64,000 nt of DNA from assembly GCF_048403405.1 (NCBI RefSeq), contig NZ_CP183129.1. One strand, given 5' to 3'. Shown in pieces: positions 24,334 to 60,987 of the stretch. The translations under genes and the position numbers were made by a program. The notes beneath the pieces were generated by a model. It was given only the letters and a program-made list of their open reading frames with translations. It had not been told where the DNA came from and ran no database searches. The stretch comes from Escherichia coli (GTDB lineage: Bacteria > Pseudomonadota > Gammaproteobacteria > Enterobacterales > Enterobacteriaceae). The first letter of the stretch is position 1. Each line of letters opens with the position of its first letter.

Positions 24334-24386
24334 CGGCGGCAGAGCAGTCACGGAGTAAAACTGATACCGCCAAACGTCACCAGAAA
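24334..24386 (-). ncRNA. dicF: DicF small regulatory RNA (antisense inhibitor of ftsZ mRNA)
   Basis: Minus strand reads ...UUUCUGGUGACGUUUGGCGGUAUCAGUUUUACUCCGUGACUGCUCUGCCGCCG followed by a U tract, matching my recollection of the 53-nt DicF sequence except at the last two bases. Confidence 0.8.
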
Positions 24387-25546: not shown

Positions 25547-25954
25547 TTATTTTATTGATTTATTTTTACGCGCTTTAAGCATTTCTTCGAAGAGTTTGTT
25601 GAAGTTTTCTACTCTTGCGCGCATTTCAGACAGCAAGGCTTCCTGCTCGGAAGATGGAAGAGCATCGAATAATTCGATCAATTCTTTGTGGTTGGGAGTT
25701 AGCTCTGTTTCCACATGAAGTTCTTGTGCAGGCACTGGTGCCTTGTCTTCGTCACCAAACATTAGCCATGTAGGTGAGCACTTCAGAGCATCCGCTAAAG
25801 CAAACAATCGTTTTCCGACTGGCTGGGTTTCGTCTCTTTCCCATTGTGAAATTGTGACGTGAGCAACTCCAGCGAGGCGCGCAGCTTCTCGTTGTGTTAA
25901 GCGTAATTCTTTTCGTCGCGCCAGAACTCGCTGGCCTAGGGTTCTTGTATCCAT
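25547..25954 (-). CDS. dicA: immunity repressor, HTH_XRE family (DicA-like)
   Basis: 135 aa; HTH LTQREAARLAGVAHVTISQWERDETQP; divergent from a Cro-like gene. Confidence 0.75.
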   Translation of the reverse strand: MDTRTLGQRVLARRKELRLTQREAARLAGVAHVTISQWERDETQPVGKRLFALADALKCSPTWLMFGDEDKAPVPAQELHVETELTPNHKELIELFDALPSSEQEALLSEMRARVENFNKLFEEMLKARKNKSIK

Positions 25955-25955
25955 A

Positions 25956-26025
25956 GTTAGGTAATTCTAATTTTTCTTGACTTAGGTATCCCGCGCACAA
26001 TAATGTTAGAAAAGTCTAACAAGAG
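25956..26025. promoter_or_regulatory. divergent promoter/operator region between dicA and dicC (OR-like)
   Basis: Inverted repeats TTAGGTAATTCTAA (25956-25969) and TGTTAGAAAAGTCTAACA (26004-26021) plus a TTGACT -35-like hexamer between the divergent repressor genes. Confidence 0.5.
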
Positions 26026-26034
26026 GGGGCTTTG

Positions 26035-26262
26035 ATGCTTAAAGTTGACGCAATTACTTTTTTTGGCAGCAAAACAAAGCTTGCCAATGCCGCAGGAGTG
26101 AGACTGGCAAGTGTTGCTGCTTGGGGGATACTGGTTCCTGAAGGTCGCGCGATGCGTCTACAGGAGGCATCTGGCGGGGAGCTTCAGTATGATCCCAAAG
26201 TTTATGACGAATATCGTAAGACGAAGCGGGCGGGGCGGTTGAACAATGAAAATCACTCCTGA
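26035..26262 (+). CDS. dicC: Cro-like small HTH regulator (DicC-like)
   Basis: About 76 aa, HTH KTKLANAAGVRLASVAAWG; good RBS (AGAGGGGGC) before the ATG. Confidence 0.7.
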   Translation: MLKVDAITFFGSKTKLANAAGVRLASVAAWGILVPEGRAMRLQEASGGELQYDPKVYDEYRKTKRAGRLNNENHS

Positions 26263-26767
26263 ACAGGCTCGTGAGGCTCTGGATGCCTGGATATGTCGAC
26301 CAGGAATGACACAGGAGCAGGCGACGATATTAATCACTGAAGCATTCTGGGCTTTGAAAGAGCGCCCGAACATCGATGTTCAGCGTGTCACATATGAAGG
26401 TGGCGCGGTTGATCAGCGAGCGCTTAGCGTTAATCGAGTGAAGATATTCGAACGCTGGAAGGCTATCGACACCAGGGATAAGCGTGAAAAGTTCACAGCG
26501 CTAGTGCCTGCAATTATGGAGGCTATCCGGATTAGTGATTTCAGGTTGTATCGTGAGATCAGTGATGGAAAAAGTATTACGTACATGATCGCCGGGTTAA
26601 ATAAAGAATATGGCGATGTGGTGGAATCCGGACTGCTTTTTGCAGATCCTGCCGTTGTAGATCGTGAAACTGACGAACTTATAGAAAAAGCAATTGCTTT
26701 CAAGCTTGCGTATCGACAGCAATACCAACAAAAAGCTGGATGGAATTATGAGTCTTCTTTTTGCTGA
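26246..26767 (+). CDS. hypothetical early protein (cII/YdaT-like position)
   Basis: 173-aa ORF between the cro-like and replication genes; no recognisable catalytic motif. Confidence 0.5.
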   Translation: MKITPEQAREALDAWICRPGMTQEQATILITEAFWALKERPNIDVQRVTYEGGAVDQRALSVNRVKIFERWKAIDTRDKREKFTALVPAIMEAIRISDFRLYREISDGKSITYMIAGLNKEYGDVVESGLLFADPAVVDRETDELIEKAIAFKLAYRQQYQQKAGWNYESSFC

Positions 26768-27713
26768 ACGCCCACTGGTTATAAACACGCAGCTGGCAAT
26801 GAAAATCGGCTTAAACGAAGCCATTGTTTTGCAACAACTGCACTACTGGTTGAGAGATACCAACTCCGGTATGGAATGTGATGGTGTTCGCTGGATTTAT
26901 AACACAACGGAACAATGGCTGGAACAGTTCCCATTCTGGTCAGAGTCAACGTTAAAGCGCGCGTTTGCAAGTCTGAAAACGCTGGGGCTTTTGCGTTGTG
27001 AAAAGCTCAATAAATCAAAGCGCGATATGACCAATTTCTACACGATCAACTATGGGAGCGAGCTTTTAGATGGTGGCAAATTGAACGAATCCATCGGTTC
27101 AAAATGCGCCGCTCCATCAGGTCAAAATGACACGATGGAAGAGGTCAAAATGAAACGCTCCATTGGTTCAAAACGACCCAATGTCATCGGGTCAAAATGG
27201 CCTGATGATCTTACAGAGAATACAACAGAGATTACTACAGAGAATAAAAACACTTTTCGTCCGGAAGCTTCGCAACCGGACCCGCAGACGACTGAACAGG
27301 ATTTTTTAACCCGGAACCCCGACGCGGTTGTGTTTAGTGTGAAAAAACGCCAGTGGGGTAGCAGGGAGGATTTGGCGTGTGCGCAGTGGATTTGGGGGCG
27401 GATCGTGAACCTTTACGAACAGGCTGCCAGCGACGATGGAGAGATCATGCGACCAAAAGAGCCTAACTGGACAGCCTGGGCCAATGACGTGCGCACAATG
27501 CGGATGCTGGATGGCAGAAGCCACAGACAAATTTGCGAAATGTTTGGTCGGGTACAGCGGGATCCATTCTGGGTAAAAAACATCATGAGCCCGTCAAAAC
27601 TCCGCGAAAAATGGGACGAACTGGTCATCCGCCTGGGACGTTCACCTGTACAGCGTTGTGTTAATCATATTTCTGAACCGGATACAGAAATTCCGCCTGG
27701 TTTCAGGGGATAA
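26748..27713 (+). CDS. phage replication initiator / replisome organiser (O-like) with internal origin
   Basis: N-terminal winged-helix-like region; the mid-gene DNA carries five iterons, so the protein shows the periodic IGSK/IGSKW motif. Confidence 0.7.
   Translation: MSLLFAERPLVINTQLAMKIGLNEAIVLQQLHYWLRDTNSGMECDGVRWIYNTTEQWLEQFPFWSESTLKRAFASLKTLGLLRCEKLNKSKRDMTNFYTINYGSELLDGGKLNESIGSKCAAPSGQNDTMEEVKMKRSIGSKRPNVIGSKWPDDLTENTTEITTENKNTFRPEASQPDPQTTEQDFLTRNPDAVVFSVKKRQWGSREDLACAQWIWGRIVNLYEQAASDDGEIMRPKEPNWTAWANDVRTMRMLDGRSHRQICEMFGRVQRDPFWVKNIMSPSKLREKWDELVIRLGRSPVQRCVNHISEPDTEIPPGFRG
27090..27200 (+). repeat. origin iterons: five direct repeats of ~TCGGTTCAAAATG spaced 23-25 bp
   Basis: ATCGGTTCAAAATG (27091), ATCAGGTCAAAATG (27115), GAGGTCAAAATG (27141), ATTGGTTCAAAACG (27162), ATCGGGTCAAAATG (27186), followed by an A+T-rich repeat-containing stretch to about 27270. 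Confidence 0.75.
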
Positions 27714-27753: not shown

Positions 27754-28155
27754 GTGGCAAAAGTTTTTACACAAGAAGAGCGGGAAAAAATTAAAGGGCA
27801 GGTTGTTGAACTCGTACGCCGGAGTGGGCGTGAGACGTTACGGCAACTGGAAGTCAAGACAGGTGCGACAAGATATCTGATGAGCGTTCTCGCAAGAGAG
27901 CTGGTTGCCAGCGGCGATGTATACAACTCTGGTTACGGGTTATTCCCGTCTGAACAGGCGCGTAAGGACTGGCAAAATGCCCGTAAAAAGCTCTCAAGGG
28001 CAAAGCTGAAGAAACCATCTGCGGTTGATCCGGACCTTATCTGGTCATTACCTGACGGAGAAATACGTCGCTACGACAGGCGTCAGAACATAATCTGCCG
28101 CGAGTGCCGGAAGAGTGAAGTTATGCAGCGCATACTGGCATTTTATCAGGGATAA
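27754..28155 (+). CDS. hypothetical protein
   Basis: 133-aa ORF with RBS; basic, contains CRECRK; immediately upstream of the AT-rich island. Confidence 0.45.
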   Translation: MAKVFTQEEREKIKGQVVELVRRSGRETLRQLEVKTGATRYLMSVLARELVASGDVYNSGYGLFPSEQARKDWQNARKKLSRAKLKKPSAVDPDLIWSLPDGEIRRYDRRQNIICRECRKSEVMQRILAFYQG

Positions 28156-28688: not shown

Positions 28689-29714
28689 ATGCACATTTTA
28701 TCTGTTTCAAAAAAGGAAGTTGGAAGAGCTGGGGATAGATTAGTTTCTCAGTTTGGTACAGGTGAAAAATATAAAGAGGAAGATGTACAAATTCTTCATG
28801 AGTGGAGGATGTTGCATTTATATCCTTTAAGTAAAATACAATTTTATATGGAAAGAGAGGCTATTTCCTTAAACAAAAATGCGTTACTATCCTCTAGAAT
28901 TAAGAGGATGCCTTCCATTGTTACTAAGCTTTCTAGATTTCCTGATATGAAGTTAAATAAGATGCAGGATCTTGGTGGGTGCCGGGCTATTTTAAATAAT
29001 CTGGATCAAGTGTATGATTTAGTTAATAAAATAAAATCATCTAAATTCTCACATGAACTAGTTAGAATGGATGATTACATGATAGACGTGAAAGATTCTG
29101 GTTATAGAAGCTTTCATATGGTCTATTCATTCCAAAATAAAAAATTTCCATCTTTAAATGGGTTGCGCATTGAAATGCAAATAAGAACAGCTATTCAACA
29201 TAGCTGGGCTACAGCAGTTGAAATGGTTGGTTTGTTTCGAAAGGAATCATTGAAATCTGGTTTTGGTGATGCAAGATGGCTTAGGTTTTTTGAATTGGTA
29301 TCAGAGCTTTTTTATAAACTTGAGTATGAAAAAGAACCATCTGGGAGTTATATAAAAATATCAGAAGAATTAAGTTATTTATCCGTCGAGTTGAATGTTT
29401 TCGATATATTAGCTGCTTACAATGCCGTAGTTAGCCATATTGAGGGTAGCAAAAAATATGATAAAGGACTTTGCATAATTGTTGTTGATACCATAAAGCG
29501 GAATATAAATATAAAGAGCTTCGAAAATCACAATCATGCGAAGGCGGCAGAAGCTTATGTCGAGTCTGAAAAATACTGCGCGGAAAATAAAGGCTGTGAA
29601 GTGGCTATGGTTTCTGTTAGTTCAATTAGTGAATTAAAAAATGCATATCCTGCTTACTTTTTAGATACGAAAACTTTTTTAAATTATCTCAGTAGGTATG
29701 TTTTTATAAAATAA
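28689..29714 (+). CDS. RelA/SpoT-domain nucleotidyltransferase (small-alarmone-synthetase / toxSAS-like) with uncharacterised C-terminal domain
   Basis: 341 aa. All synthetase-fold motifs present in order: RIKRMPSIVTK, DLGGCRAIL, YRSFHMVY, EMQIRTAIQHSWATAVE. C-terminal ~150 aa unrecognised. The gene lies in a conspicuously AT-rich island. Confidence 0.8.
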   Translation: MHILSVSKKEVGRAGDRLVSQFGTGEKYKEEDVQILHEWRMLHLYPLSKIQFYMEREAISLNKNALLSSRIKRMPSIVTKLSRFPDMKLNKMQDLGGCRAILNNLDQVYDLVNKIKSSKFSHELVRMDDYMIDVKDSGYRSFHMVYSFQNKKFPSLNGLRIEMQIRTAIQHSWATAVEMVGLFRKESLKSGFGDARWLRFFELVSELFYKLEYEKEPSGSYIKISEELSYLSVELNVFDILAAYNAVVSHIEGSKKYDKGLCIIVVDTIKRNINIKSFENHNHAKAAEAYVESEKYCAENKGCEVAMVSVSSISELKNAYPAYFLDTKTFLNYLSRYVFIK

Positions 29715-30448
29715 AAAATGTTATCTGGAGTGGTCTGAATTCTACTAACTTAGTTTTTTCAGACCGCTTCTGACCACAATGGCCTGTGAGGTTCTGCTGC
29801 TAGTCAACATAAAATAACAAAGCCGGCAGGTGGTGGTTGTTGTAAAGTTATTCAATGACATTCATGGAGGCTTAAGCGAATTATTTGTCCCTGGTCGGTA
29901 TGGTGGCAACAGCTTGTTGCGAGAATTTGGCTAATTTGGACTGACTTCCGCTCCTTGCTCAAAGCGGACTAGAAGGTTAGCTTGTGTCGGACTTTGCGTA
30001 TTAAAAGAAGTGCTGGTGGTGACTAGTGGTTGAGCCCCATTTCCACAGAAAAAATCAGAGAAACTATACCCAATAGTTGTATTGAATCACTGACGAGACA
30101 GCCTCATATTCATCAGGACTGGTGTACGTCCAATACAGGAGGTTGTGGTGCTGGTTCTCAAATGTGCGCTGGCTATTACGGCTGTAATGGCGATTTATTG
30201 TCTTGCTATTGTTCTTATGGATCGCCTTTCTGACTGATTTCATATTGGCGAGGTAAAGGTAGTTAAGTAGAATGGCTGCGGGTGCTTGAGGCTATCTGCC
30301 TCGGGCATGAACACCAAAGGCAGATAGAGAAAAGCCCCAGTTAACATTACGCGTCCTGCAAGACGCTTAACATTAATCTGAGGCCAATTTCATGCTAGAC
30401 ACATGTAGGTTAGCCTCTTACGTGCCGGAAGGCAAGGAGAAGCAGGCT

Positions 30449-30604
30449 ATGAAGCAGCAAAAGGCGATGTTAATCGCCCTGATCGTCATCTGTTTAACCG
30501 TCATAGTGACGGCACTGGTAACGAGGAAAGACCTCTGCGAGGTACGAATCCGAACCGGCCAGACGGAGGTCGCTGTCTTCACAGCTTACGAACCTGAGGA
30601 GTAA
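30449..30604 (+). CDS. hokD: Hok/Gef-family membrane toxin (type I toxin)
   Basis: 51 aa, MKQQKAMLIALIVICLTVIVTALVTRKDLCEVRIRTGQTEVAVFTAYEPEE; embedded in a longer mok-like upstream ORF (30392..). Confidence 0.85.
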   Translation: MKQQKAMLIALIVICLTVIVTALVTRKDLCEVRIRTGQTEVAVFTAYEPEE

Positions 30605-33589: not shown

Positions 33590-33909
33590 TTCCTGTCATT
33601 TTAGGGGACAGAAAAACTCCTTAATACTGATAACCTGGTGCACCATACACACGTTCCTGGAGAAAACTACTTTTTTGATAGGGTTGAAGGTGGCTGGATG
33701 TCTAAAATAAACATTGCTTCATATGTTCAACTATGAGTTAATGACTGCGTCGGTTTGAAGAACAGACGATATACGAAGTAGTTTACTAAAGCAGTTCTCA
33801 TTTCAGGTGTTATTCACTTATTCCTTCTTTGAGTCTCTCCAATTAAGTACGAAGTCGTTTCTGTTATGCAAACCATTTATGCCGAAAGGCTCAAGTTAAG
33901 GAATGTAGA

Positions 33910-34125
33910 ATGTCAAATAAAATGACTGGTTTAGTAAAATGGTTTAACGCTGATAAAGGTTTCGGCTTTATTTCTCCTGTTGATGGTAGTAAAGATGTGT
34001 TTGTGCATTTTTCTGCGATTCAGAATGATAATTATCGAACCTTATTTGAAGGTCAAAAGGTTACCTTCTCTATAGAGAGTGGTGCTAAAGGTCCTGCAGC
34101 AGCAAATGTCATCATTACTGATTAA
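33910..34125 (+). CDS. cspB: cold-shock protein (CspA family)
   Basis: 71 aa, [38 protein letters not shown]... with RNP1/RNP2 motifs; long 5' leader typical of csp genes. Confidence 0.8.
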
Positions 34126-34406
34126 AATTCATCGCTCGTCTGTATACGATAACGAAGAAGGCTGATGCCTGAGTAGAGATACGGACAGAGTAGTGAATAT
34201 TGGATCTCTTTAATAAAAAGTAAGGAGGTCCAATACATGAAACAATGGCCAGCATATTTGGCAAAATCTTAATCAGGAAAAGTATGCTAACCATTGTGGT
34301 GAAGTGCAGGTTTGCTGCATGAATAGTTTCACAGCAGAAGCTAACTGCTGGCATCGCAAAACAAAGTGCGTAAGTGGATGACTCCCACAAAAAGCACCAC
34401 AATCTC

Positions 34407-36999: not shown

Positions 37000-37362
37000 A
37001 TTAATATTAAATCGGATTATTTTTAGCGCTGAATGTGAAATTTAAATAAAAAGGACTCTTCCATGAGTCAAAATCCTTGAAATCTTAAGGGTAAGATAAA
37101 AGGTCATTAGACAGAATGACACGTTTTATTAATAAATAAAGCTATTGTTTCATTCGTGTGTTTTTCTTTACAAAAGTAATCCTTGCTATGGTTGGTTAAT
37201 CATGCGTTAATGGTGTTCTGGTTTGTTACAAAATTATCTGAAGCAGTCATTGTTATAATTTTATTATTTGTACCTCTTGAGATTTCCTTGTTGGTTTTTC
37301 TCTCTGATATTTTTTTTCGGACCATTCTGCCCAAGGGCTAACTTCTTCAAAAGGTAATAATG

Positions 37363-37575
37363 ATGTCTAACAAAATGACTGGTTTAGTGAAATGGTTTAA
37401 CCCTGAAAAAGGTTTTGGTTTCATCACGCCGAAAGATGGTAGCAAAGATGTGTTTGTCCATTTCTCAGCTATTCAGAGCAACGATTTCAAAACGTTAACT
37501 GAGAATCAGGAAGTCGAATTTGGTATTGAGAACGGACCTAAAGGCCCCGCGGCTGTTCATGTTGTGGCACTTTGA
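37363..37575 (+). CDS. cold-shock protein (CspA family; cspI-like position after the lysis cassette)
   Basis: [45 protein letters not shown]... Confidence 0.8.
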
Positions 37576-37779
37576 GGTAGATAATATTACAAACCATATT
37601 CACTTTAGATGCCCGTGTTGCCATGGTTCTCAGTATAGAACATCATCTTTTGATGTTTCTGACAGGAATCCTTTCGGGGCAAAATGTATCTTTTGTAAAT
37701 CAATGATGATTACATTTGATAATATTTCACAATACTTAAATGTTAGCCGTCTATCGTTAGATTTAAGAAAGTGAAAATG

Positions 37780-58581: not shown

Positions 58582-60987
58582 ATGGCAGCAGTAAAAATCT
58601 CAGGTGTGCTGAAAGATGGTGCGGGAAAACCAATACAGAACTGCACTATTCAACTGAAGGCAAAGCGTAACAGCACCACGGTACTGGTGAACACGGTGGC
58701 CTCTGAAAATCCGGATGAAGCCGGGCGTTACAGCATGGATGTTGAGTATGGCCAGTACAGCGTTATCCTGCTTGTTGAAGGTTTTCCGCCTTCACATGCC
58801 GGAACCATTACCGTCTATGAAGGTTCCAGACCAGGTACGCTGAATGATTTTCTCGGTGCCATGACGGAAGATGATGTCATGCCGGAGGCATTGCGTCGTT
58901 TTGAGGAAATGGTGGAAGAAGCGGCACGCAACGCCGAAGCCGCCTCTCAGAGCGCAGCGGCGGCAAAGAAATCCGAAACTGCAGCGGCATCATCAAAGAA
59001 CGCGGCGAAAACCTCAGAAACGAATGCAGCTAATAGTGCACAGGCGGCAGCGACCTCAAAGACTGCATCGGCAAACTCCGCGACAGCAGCCAAAAAATCA
59101 GAAACCAACGCGAAAAATAGCGAGACAGCCGCAAAGACGAGCGAAACCAACGCAAAGTCCAGCCAGACGGCAGCGAAAACCAGCGAAACGAATGCCAAAG
59201 CCAGTGAAACTGCGGCAAAAAACAGCCAGGTTGCAGCAGCCCAAAGCGAGAGCGCGGCAGCCGGTTCTGCGACTTCAGCAGCTGGATCAGCAACTGCTGC
59301 GGCTAACAGCCAGAAAGCTGCGAAGACGAGTGAAACTAACGCAAAGTCCAGCCAGACGGCAGCGAAGACCAGCGAAACGAATGCCAAAGCCAGTGAAACT
59401 GCGGCGAAAAGCAGTCAGGATGCAGCGGCCCAAAGCGAGAGTGCCGCAGCCAGTTCTGCAAGCGCGGCGGCTGCTTCTGCCACTGCATCAGCTAACAGTC
59501 AAAAAGCAGCAAAAACCAGTGAAACCAACGCAAAGGCGAGCGAGACTGCGGCGGCGAACTCGGCGCAAGCATCGGCAGCAAGCCAGACAGCAGCTAAAGC
59601 AAGTGAAGACGCAGCCAGAGAGTATGCAAGCCAGGCAGCGGAGCCGTATAAACAAGTTTTGCAGCCGTTGCCCGATGTGTGGATACCGTTTAATGATTCA
59701 CTGGATATGATTACGGGCTTTTCGCCATCATATAAAAAAATTGTTATTGGCGACGATGAAATAACAATGCCTGGCGACAAGATTGTAAAGTTTAAACGCG
59801 CATCGAAAGCAACTTACATTAATAAATCTGGTGTGCTGACAGAGGCTGCCATTGACGAGCCACGATTTGAACGTGATGGCCTGCTTATTGAGGGGCAAAG
59901 AACTAACCTGCTAATCAATTCAACAAATCCGACTAAATGGAACAAGTCGTCAAATATGATCTTAAGTGCATCAGGTGTAGATGATTTCGGATTCCAGTAC
60001 GCAAAATTTACATTAAAACCAGAAATGGTAGGGCAAATTTCAGCGATTAACATAGTAACCGTTTCCGGCAGTAAAGGTTTTGATGTAACAGGCGGAGAAA
60101 AGTATGTAACCATATCATGCAGGGTGCAAAGTGGCACTCCAAATTTAAGATGCCGATTACGATTTGAAAACTATGATGGTTCTACCTACACATTCTTAGG
60201 TGACGCTTACTTAAATACGACAGATTTATCTATTGATAAGACGGGTGGTGCCGCTAATCGCATTACTGCAAGGGCTGTTAAAGATGAAGCAAGCAAATGG
60301 ATCTTTTTTGAGGCGACAATTAAGGCACTTGATACAGAAAATATGATAGGTGGAATGGTTCAGTATGCCCCGGCAAAAGGAGTGGGCACTGGCGCGGATG
60401 ATTATATTTATATTGCGACCCCTCAAGTTGAAGGTGGGGCGTGCGCTTCATCGTTTATTATAACAGGCGCATCCCCTGTAACACGCGCCAGCGATATTGT
60501 AACGGTCCCCATTTCTCTAAATTGGTGCAATCCCGCTATTAGTTCATTAGCAGAAGTTAATACCAATTGGGATGAATCGCCAAACAAAGAAGGTAGCGCA
60601 CGTATTCTTAATATTTCCACTACGGGAGATACAACTGAAATTGCAGATGAAAGTTATATGTATTTGGGGTATACATCTTTGGGAGCACGCGCAATCATTA
60701 CAAATGGTAAAGGCACTAAAATAGAATATAAAAGCGTTATAGAACGACCAGAGAGAAAAAGCATTATCGGCTTTAGATTCACAGAAAGTCGAGAATTGTG
60801 TGTTGTGGTTAACGGTAATATTGGTGCTAAGGTAGTTTCTCCTTATAAAAAACACAAATATACAGGAGGCTTCATTAATATTGGTGGTCAATCATCATCC
60901 GGCAACCGTCACCTATTTGGACACGTTCGAAATCTGCGTATTTGGCACAAGGCATTGACTGATGCTCAGATGGGGGAGTCAATCTAA
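58582..60987 (+). CDS. side tail fibre protein (lambda Stf-like N-terminus, Ala/Ser/Thr-rich repeat shaft, divergent AT-rich C-terminal receptor-binding region)
   Basis: N-terminus MAAVKISGVLKDGAGKPIQNCTIQLKAKRNSTT...; repeat shaft; C-terminal ~430 aa from an AT-rich segment ending ...GHVRNLRIWHKALTDAQMGESI (lectin/LamG-like ending). Confidence 0.85.
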   Translation: MAAVKISGVLKDGAGKPIQNCTIQLKAKRNSTTVLVNTVASENPDEAGRYSMDVEYGQYSVILLVEGFPPSHAGTITVYEGSRPGTLNDFLGAMTEDDVMPEALRRFEEMVEEAARNAEAASQSAAAAKKSETAAASSKNAAKTSETNAANSAQAAATSKTASANSATAAKKSETNAKNSETAAKTSETNAKSSQTAAKTSETNAKASETAAKNSQVAAAQSESAAAGSATSAAGSATAAANSQKAAKTSETNAKSSQTAAKTSETNAKASETAAKSSQDAAAQSESAAASSASAAAASATASANSQKAAKTSETNAKASETAAANSAQASAASQTAAKASEDAAREYASQAAEPYKQVLQPLPDVWIPFNDSLDMITGFSPSYKKIVIGDDEITMPGDKIVKFKRASKATYINKSGVLTEAAIDEPRFERDGLLIEGQRTNLLINSTNPTKWNKSSNMILSASGVDDFGFQYAKFTLKPEMVGQISAINIVTVSGSKGFDVTGGEKYVTISCRVQSGTPNLRCRLRFENYDGSTYTFLGDAYLNTTDLSIDKTGGAANRITARAVKDEASKWIFFEATIKALDTENMIGGMVQYAPAKGVGTGADDYIYIATPQVEGGACASSFIITGASPVTRASDIVTVPISLNWCNPAISSLAEVNTNWDESPNKEGSARILNISTTGDTTEIADESYMYLGYTSLGARAIITNGKGTKIEYKSVIERPERKSIIGFRFTESRELCVVVNGNIGAKVVSPYKKHKYTGGFINIGGQSSSGNRHLFGHVRNLRIWHKALTDAQMGESI
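59141..59518 (+). repeat. tandem direct repeat, 2 x 189 bp (63-aa unit), within the tail-fibre shaft region
   Basis: 59141-59329 and 59330-59518 are nearly identical (GAAAC-AACGCAAAGTCCAGCCAGACGGCAGCGAA-ACCAGCGAAACGAATGCCAAAGCCAGTGAAACTGCGGC...); a partial third copy follows. Confidence 0.8.

Follow-up and report, generated by a model that had tools for sequence, protein, structure and literature searches.

A probable lambda-like replication origin inside the initiator gene of a loader-less Escherichia coli prophage module, with a DnaT-type tail as a candidate link to host helicase loading

The window analyzed here, a stretch of 64,000 nucleotides from Escherichia coli (NZ_CP183129.1), is chromosomal DNA with a lambdoid prophage at the ynfA-rspAB (Qin) site. 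The prophage encodes an O-like replication initiator whose gene contains a series of direct repeats (iterons) next to an A+T-rich block. We conclude that this region is probably the vegetative replication origin of the prophage, similar to ori-lambda, lying inside the linker-coding part of the initiator gene and served by tail-mediated loading of the host helicase. Judged from sequence, it is very likely that the initiator binds this region and that the origin fires. Support for an origin of the lambda type comes from the anatomy of the repeats, from constraint acting at the DNA level, from covariation between the repeats and the N-terminal domain (N-domain) of the initiator, and from the disordered linker that the repeats encode.

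A repeat search identified five direct repeats in register inside the initiator gene, spaced by 23/23/23/24 bp (Table 1). The initial annotation had described five iterons at this place in the O-like gene with a spacing of 23-25 bp; their number and location hold, but the spacing is tighter than stated. The iteron core, GGTCAAAATG, is present in three exact copies and one copy with a single mismatch, all within ~100 bp, and has no further exact match on either strand of the whole window. When the initiator gene was shuffled by dinucleotide (0/300) or by codon (0/300), no cluster of this kind, defined as five copies of a 10-mer with up to 2 mismatches within 120 bp, arose. Iteron units 2, 4 and 5, centred at 27126, 27172 and 27196, each form an imperfect palindrome in which 8-9 of the 12 pairs are complementary. 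A decayed sixth iteron, recognized by alignment to relatives, corresponds to an intact GAGGTCAAAGTGA-type iteron in mEp460_4F5 and in Klebsiella phage Kp4884-3.

Directly adjoining the iterons on their promoter-distal side is the A-strand-biased block that we presume to be the DNA-unwinding element. It is 71% A+T and 47% A, holds three 12-bp repeats (TACAGAGAATAC / AACAGAGATTAC / TACAGAGAATAA, at 27212-27247), and includes the least stable 40 bp of the gene (-44.3 against a mean of -54.9 +/- 3.5 kcal/mol, 3 standard deviations off). The A+T-rich stretch with repeats that had been noted after the iterons is therefore borne out. With the low stability of this block, the position of the array in the linker-coding part and the lambda-O-type C-terminal domain (C-domain), the lambdoid arrangement first proposed for the region also appears correct. 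The surroundings of the origin were also scanned for GATC clusters, IHF sites and DnaA boxes, and we rejected the outcome as evidence for DnaA-driven loading. No IHF site was matched near the origin, a single GATC lies there (27207), and relaxed DnaA-box matches (TTWTNCACA) number just two, at 27338-27346 (-), ~80 bp to the right of the A+T block, and at 27765-27773 (+). Neither is within one mismatch of TTATCCACA, and both are probably due to chance. An Rfam scan at the origin returned no RNA family.

The repeats could in principle matter as peptide rather than as DNA, forming a repetitive or low-complexity protein linker with no DNA role. Three copies do encode IGSK, and the region is predicted to be a disordered linker. 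However, the period of 23-24 bp is no multiple of 3, and the copies are spread over three reading frames, with the remaining two giving SGQN and EVKM; the periodic IGSK motif reported earlier thus applies to three copies of the five. Codon positions were compared between the initiator of the window and those of mEp460_4F5 and Klebsiella phage Kp4884-3 (values given for the two relatives). Within the N-domain, third-codon identity is saturated at 45%/37.5%, against 87%/82% at positions 1+2, whereas in the iteron array third-codon identity (84%/80%) equals that at positions 1+2. In the A+T block 14/14 third-codon positions are identical (100%/100%), as are 43/43 and 39/43 bases. The dyad symmetry of units 2, 4 and 5 likewise speaks against a peptide repeat, as does the appearance of a true one in the same DNA: the sole other site of the window with at least five clustered 10-mer copies, at 58997-59553 (+), is an in-frame array of 21-bp (7-amino-acid) repeats inside 189-bp higher-order repeats, and it looks quite unlike the iterons. 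This array resembles a tail-fibre-type coiled-coil repeat. We rejected the peptide-repeat reading on the frame and codon-position evidence and consider it very improbable. The three-frame reading, the conservation of third-codon positions and a pattern of natural deletion together support the view that the repeats function as DNA, not as protein.

The deletion pattern is found in natural initiator alleles of 290 amino acids on E. coli contigs (P0018; L016:1380-2252), which lack exactly 31 amino acids. The missing 93 bp equal 23+23+23+24, that is, four iterons, and about one good iteron remains. This is probably the product expected from recombination between iterons, and the alleles are probably origin-defective prophage copies, comparable to the ori deletion mutants of lambda.

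Scanning IMG/VR with the C-domain yielded 74 complete initiators whose C-domains are at least 90% identical to that of the window and which fall into two N-domain classes. Five GGTCAAAATG-type iterons spaced by 23/23/23/24 bp are present in all 36 loci with the N-domain class of the window, and the exact 34-nucleotide A+T block in 33 of them. The initial annotation had named a lack of conservation in homologous initiator genes as evidence that would count against an origin; the repeats are kept in every one of these same-class loci. By comparison, 0/38 loci with the SfII-type N-domain have iterons of the window type or the A+T block, and 38/38 have TTGACCCGTCAA-type repeats with a 15-bp period. 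Because the covariation is perfect (36/36 versus 0/38) and the C-domain is shared, iteron type appears to follow the N-domain and not the C-domain, as in the lambda family. The 15-bp period of the SfII-class repeats (L025; for example, L002:2651-2790) is in frame and gives pentapeptide repeats, and initiator lengths of 310, 315 and 320 amino acids in this class would be compatible with single repeats having been gained or lost.

With 10,312 representatives at E<=1e-3, the N-domain family is large. In 55 of the 149 top representatives (P0121-P0269; 35-77% identity), a 'TE.TTE(.TTE)' string, as translated from the A+T block of the window, occurs right after the N-domain, and within the family these strings are preceded by GS.C / GQ.D / VKM strings. 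Such a succession reads as a multi-frame translation of the embedded-origin type, and its occurrence in distant representatives therefore suggests that the architecture is conserved across the N-domain family. The TE.TTE fingerprint could help to locate embedded origins in protein databases.

Structure modeling agrees with this layout. AlphaFold2 (AF2) predicted a confident N-domain (amino acids 10-105), a disordered stretch (110-178), a helical C-domain (200-296; predicted local distance difference test score [pLDDT] 80-92) and a disordered tail (pLDDT mostly <55). The iterons and the A+T block code for the disordered stretch, which lies between the two folded domains. The modeled N-domain has a winged-helix fold closest to that of iteron-binding plasmid RepA; we take the structural matches to be RepA_N-type plasmid initiators of Gram-positive bacteria (RepA of pSK41/pTZ2162). 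Sequence-based approaches were less informative: scans of Pfam-A and NCBIfam assigned the initiator to no family, PHROGs alone recognized it, and a sequence search against the Protein Data Bank (PDB) matched only the tail, to DnaT. BLASTP aligned amino acids 147-294 with residues 135-270 of lambda O (34% identity, E 1e-28). This alignment takes in the linker encoded by the A+T-rich region and is confined to that part of the initiator, so that the N-domain of the lambda O family (Pfam Phage_rep_O) was not found in it.

What the module lacks is a helicase loader. As the initial annotation had observed, no P-like or DnaC-like gene follows the initiator; tblastn, with Rac as positive control, detected none anywhere in the 64-kb window. 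Likewise, with the same control, no loader is annotated or detectable in the complete HannyBb genome. In the slot expected for P or a DnaC-like gene, a LygF/DUF977 gene begins 40 nucleotides past the initiator stop. Lambdoid modules with O as the only replication gene were noted in 34 of 314 lambdoid phages, including phage LLS, by Zhang, Casjens, Smith et al. 2025, who call their replication 'not yet understood' (PMC12315714). Under the definition in that paper, and with the RefSeq annotation, the initiator locus of the window is such an O-only module. The same loader-less module is present in the plaque-forming phages mEp460_ev081, PhiR42_1 and HannyBb, which were deposited as phage isolates.

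A possible answer to the loader question lies at the other end of the initiator. Its last 20 residues, QRCVNHISEPDTEIPPGFRG, are identical at 14/20 positions to the extreme C-terminus of E. coli DnaT, and the motif VN.[IV]S.PD..IP.GFRG sits at the very C-terminus in a predicted flexible segment; the last 20 residues of DnaT are themselves a highly flexible tail (PMC5778457). The initiator is otherwise no DnaT: against NCBIfam NF002770, the DnaT family model (an N-terminal domain and a three-helix C-terminal domain), it reaches 16.3 bits where the cut-off is 201, with a match confined to residues 302-321, and BLASTP aligns just the last 20 amino acids with DnaT. The name 'primosomal protein I', given to the initiator in several phage records, is thus a misnomer, explained by the match of the tail to the DnaT C-terminus. 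Use of this name is inconsistent, in that it is applied to DnaT-tailed initiators (LR597641/LR595868) and also to Edwardsiella phage Edno5 gp55 (L099:1524-2366), despite its lambda-type tail followed by P.

DnaT-type tails occur on at least five unrelated initiator architectures, with unrelated N- and middle domains. Their bearers include SfII gp41, Tritos gp36, SPN1S gp46, a Klebsiella phage protein, Rac YdaU, Gifsy-2 O and POCJ13 gp16, and the gene after them is either a non-replication gene or a DnaC homologue right after the stop. The host dnaT-dnaC operon has the same layout, tail then DnaC. Among 73 IMG/VR loci with a DnaT-type tail, 44 have no loader, 29 a DnaC-like loader and 0 a P gene. 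LygF comes directly next, 13-32 nucleotides off, in the 44 loader-less loci; in the 29 others, a DnaC-like gene right after the stop and a YdaW-like gene form a cassette of ~1.45 kb, so that LygF follows ~1.5 kb on. Identity between the phage DnaC homologues and host DnaC is 49-50%. Initiators 94-95% identical to that of the window, with an identical tail, are also found in the form with DnaC. The tail is not a universal feature of the N-domain family, a possibility we rejected since just 3/149 representatives have it.

Initiators followed by a P homologue end differently. Lambda O, phi80 gp15, Edno5 gp55 and Brookers gp49 all have W-containing lambda-type tails. A sister module on Logan contig ERR10093472_1047 (L015:4001-5697) encodes an initiator 72% identical to that of the window, with the same N-domain, iterons and A+T block; it ends in the lambda-type tail ...DWNSADGWEDVL, and a Phage_lambda_P gene overlaps its stop, in otherwise identical synteny. 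We interpret this module as a natural swap of tail and loader together. In all, a lambda-type tail was found in 5/5 relatives with P next. The C-domain stays at least 90% identical even in initiators with the other N-domain and other iterons. With DnaT-type tails accompanied by DnaC or no loader and lambda-type tails by P, the last ~25 residues appear to track loader type. Two further proteins, P0271 (425 amino acids) and P0325 (409 amino acids), contain the DnaT DNA-binding domain (PF17948) and a full DnaC, and appear to be candidate DnaT-DnaC fusions or read-throughs of the 2-nucleotide dnaT-dnaC junction.

Together, these observations suggest the following model. Transcription from the pR-like promoter would yield the initiator, whose N-terminal winged-helix dimers would bind the five (and one decayed) 23-bp dyad-symmetric iterons to form an O-some-like complex, and the neighbouring A+T-rich block of ~50 bp would then melt. 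With no phage helicase loader, helicase delivery would be left to the host. The tail would most likely dock the initiator onto DnaC-type loading machinery, either host DnaB-DnaC or the DnaC homologue of a sister phage, and so do the work done in lambda by P and the lambda-type tail. From the association between tail and loader type, we give roughly even chances to the tail coupling the initiator to DnaC-type loading of host DnaB by contacting a DnaC-type loader or the DnaB-DnaC complex. [quoted passage not shown]

A contrasting explanation for the missing loader is that the module is a decayed or truncated remnant, with an origin that is genuine by ancestry yet able to fire only if a loader is provided in trans; the loader might come from the DnaC-like gene of a co-resident prophage, or growth might depend mainly on recombination-dependent replication. 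Several findings would suit such a remnant: sister loci bear the DnaC-like and YdaW-like cassette precisely where the window has nothing, related places number two per E. coli genome in the median, a large RecE-like exonuclease is encoded by the prophage, alleles with the 93-bp deletion of four iterons exist in nature, and an O-only lambdoid phage has been tied to recombination-dependent growth (PMC12315714). Yet the loader-less form is the majority (44/73), it is carried by phages that were deposited as virus isolates and whose complete genomes are devoid of any loader, and in the loci without a loader purifying constraint acts clearly on iterons, A+T block and tail. Because phages deposited as isolates carry the same module and it is the majority form, we rejected the defective-remnant reading, which seems quite unlikely, and regard the missing P gene as no defect. 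Of the two descriptions offered in the initial annotation, non-canonical or truncated, the first therefore applies; the second fails in the sense of a defective module and is apt only in an evolutionary sense, sister modules carrying an optional DnaC-like cassette.

A different partner for the tail must also be considered. It could be the DnaB-DnaC complex, PriA or PriB, or a DnaT oligomer, and one version holds that the tail mimics DnaT within the PriA-PriB restart primosome rather than contacting DnaC: the initiator would open the origin, the tail would bind PriA, PriB or the DnaT oligomer, and the restart pathway would load DnaB. DnaT does act with PriA and PriB in the cell; its C-terminal domain docks on PriA and its linker on PriB (PMC13377028), and, as residues 1-161 form a dimer and the native protein a trimer, its C-terminal end may aid oligomerisation (PMC5778457). 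This version leaves unexplained why a DnaC homologue so often directly follows the tail (29 loci as well as Rac, Gifsy-2 and POCJ13) and why the tail is swapped exactly where P, the replacement for DnaC, occurs, and no contact with PriA or PriB is assigned to the tail in the literature examined. We consider it unlikely, though less so than decay of the module. For DnaC-type docking at a lambda-type origin, some evidence is unfavourable. The match between the tail and DnaT is short and borderline by itself (phmmer E ~0.01-0.04 against the PDB), and the tail-loader association is comparative, with solo and DnaC-bearing loci being closely related mosaics whose counts are not independent. [quoted passage not shown] An AF2 model of E. 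coli DnaC fused through (GGGGS)6 to the tail showed no docking on monomeric DnaC, with DnaC at pLDDT ~80 and the tail unplaced at pLDDT 30-37, a result that also fits the primosome version; this was a weak test, using a 44-row alignment and one partner with no DnaB hexamer, control or contact map. Lastly, at merely 71% A+T the block beside the iterons is less extreme than that of lambda.

Table 1. Features of the replication region and its surroundings in the window
Feature	Position	Strand	Details
cI/DicA-like repressor	25547-25954	-	
pR-like sigma-70 promoter	25977-26004	+	TTGACT-16-AATAAT; 10/12 in consensus scan; consensus match only
cro-like gene	26032-26262		
cII/YdaT-like gene	26246-26767		
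O-like replication initiator gene	26748-27713	+	321 amino acids; PHROG 391 'replication initiation O-like', E 1.9e-92
N-terminal winged-helix domain, coding region	26748-27071	+	amino acids 1 to ~108; presumed iteron-binding
Decayed sixth iteron	27069-27091	no strand	GATGGTGGCAAATTGAACGAATC; aligned to relatives
Five abutting 23-bp iterons	27092-27207	no strand	consensus about CATYGGKTCAAAAYGRCNYGATG
Iteron units	27092-27114, 27115-27137, 27138-27160, 27161-27183, 27185-27207		
A+T-rich, A-strand-biased block	27208-27257	no strand	~50 bp; presumed DNA-unwinding element
Helical C-domain, coding region	27303-27635	+	amino acids ~186-296; homologous to lambda O C-terminal domain
DnaT-type C-terminal tail, coding region	27651-27710	+	last 20 amino acids, QRCVNHISEPDTEIPPGFRG
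LygF/Ren-like DUF977 gene	27754-28155	+	PHROG 142; RefSeq annotation

The surroundings of the initiator gene are those of a lambdoid early region (Table 1). The pR-like promoter sits between the cI-like repressor and the cro-like gene, a place equivalent to that of pR in lambda and phi80, and as a consensus match it would drive rightward reading through cro and the cII/YdaT-like gene and on through the initiator and the origin. At the DNA level the segment shares 96% identity with mEp460_ev081, PhiR42_1 and HannyBb. Initiator and LygF are contiguous in 1588 of the 5426 complete E. coli genomes, where RefSeq mostly labels the initiator 'hypothetical protein'. Farther along, the moron position flanked by the LygF-like gene and hokD is taken by a 341-amino-acid RelA/SpoT-domain protein (28689-29714, +), with matches to PHROG 4773, of unknown function, and to PDC-S33, a candidate defence family of PADLOC (E 5e-119). 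Rfam matches above the gathering score, at 24334-24385 (-), 30280-30454 (+), 33749-34141 (+) and 37205-37621 (+), comprise DicF antisense RNA, the sok antitoxin RNA of the hokD locus and two cspA-type thermoregulator leaders, the usual cargo of Qin prophages.

Although the existence of the module had already been noted, we found no description of the origin anatomy or of the tail/loader rule in searchable papers. Searches of the literature on 'initiator-solo' and ydaU/ydaV replication found no experimental work on the module, and a search on the motif PGFRG gave nothing relevant. The analysis provides the loader-less O-type class with a defined origin and a testable proposal for how it acquires a helicase, and it indicates that the labels 'hypothetical protein' and 'primosomal protein I' mask an origin-binding initiator. 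The tail bears on an open question in replication restart, namely which part of DnaT contacts DnaB/DnaC, and represents a 20-residue peptide that evolution has transferred from one protein to another, either alongside DnaC-type loaders or as a substitute for them. If it is indeed a docking peptide, it would be the missing physical link that passes the restart primosome from DnaT to DnaB-DnaC. Temperate phages of Enterobacteria would then have repeatedly grafted it onto unrelated origin-binding proteins, enabling them to shed their own loader and run on host DnaC, and the last ~25 residues would be a swappable 'partner code', lambda-type for P and DnaT-type for DnaC. Replication competence and compatibility among E. 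coli prophages could also be marked by the tail classes, by the origin and by alleles with the 93-bp iteron deletion.

Compared with known systems, the module combines parts of several. RepA_N plasmid initiators differ from the initiator of the window in their C-terminal parts and hosts, with ~10-19% sequence identity and no Pfam RepA_N match. Host DnaT shares the last 20 residues only and is not an origin-binding initiator. Rac YdaU-YdaV, Gifsy-2, POCJ13 and host dnaT-dnaC resemble each other in having a DnaT-type tail with a DnaC-family gene immediately next; unlike the Rac, Gifsy-2 and POCJ13 modules, the window has no DnaC-like and YdaW-like cassette. In the accessible portion of PMC12315714, the O-only modules are similar in having one O homologue with no helicase or loader, and mEp460_4F5, which carries the initiator family of the window, is the closest relative of the LLS cI repressor and Cro; that portion mentions neither an origin nor a tail.

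The closest parallel is lambda itself, whose origin consists of four 19-bp imperfect inverted-repeat iterons bound by O dimers, together with an A+T-rich tract, in the middle of O (PMC7466680). Like ori-lambda and its counterparts in phi80 gp15 and Stx-phage O, the origin of the window lies in the middle of the initiator gene and encodes a flexible linker. It also shares with the ori-lambda class 4-6 dyad-symmetric iterons of ~19-23 bp with a TCAAAAYG-like centre and a promoter-distal A+T block, and with lambda a homologous C-terminal domain (34% identity) and the gene order cI, pR, cro, cII-like, O, ren-like (PMC7466680). In contrast to lambda, its initiator has an N-domain without a Pfam hit whose closest fold is plasmid RepA, its iteron sequence is different, its A+T block is built of 12-bp repeats of the ACAGAGA type, a P gene is absent, and the last ~27 amino acids are replaced by the DnaT-type tail. 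By sequence comparison, this is a probable origin of lambda-like plan that differs from the lambda kind in its N-domain family, its iteron family and the absence of a loader.

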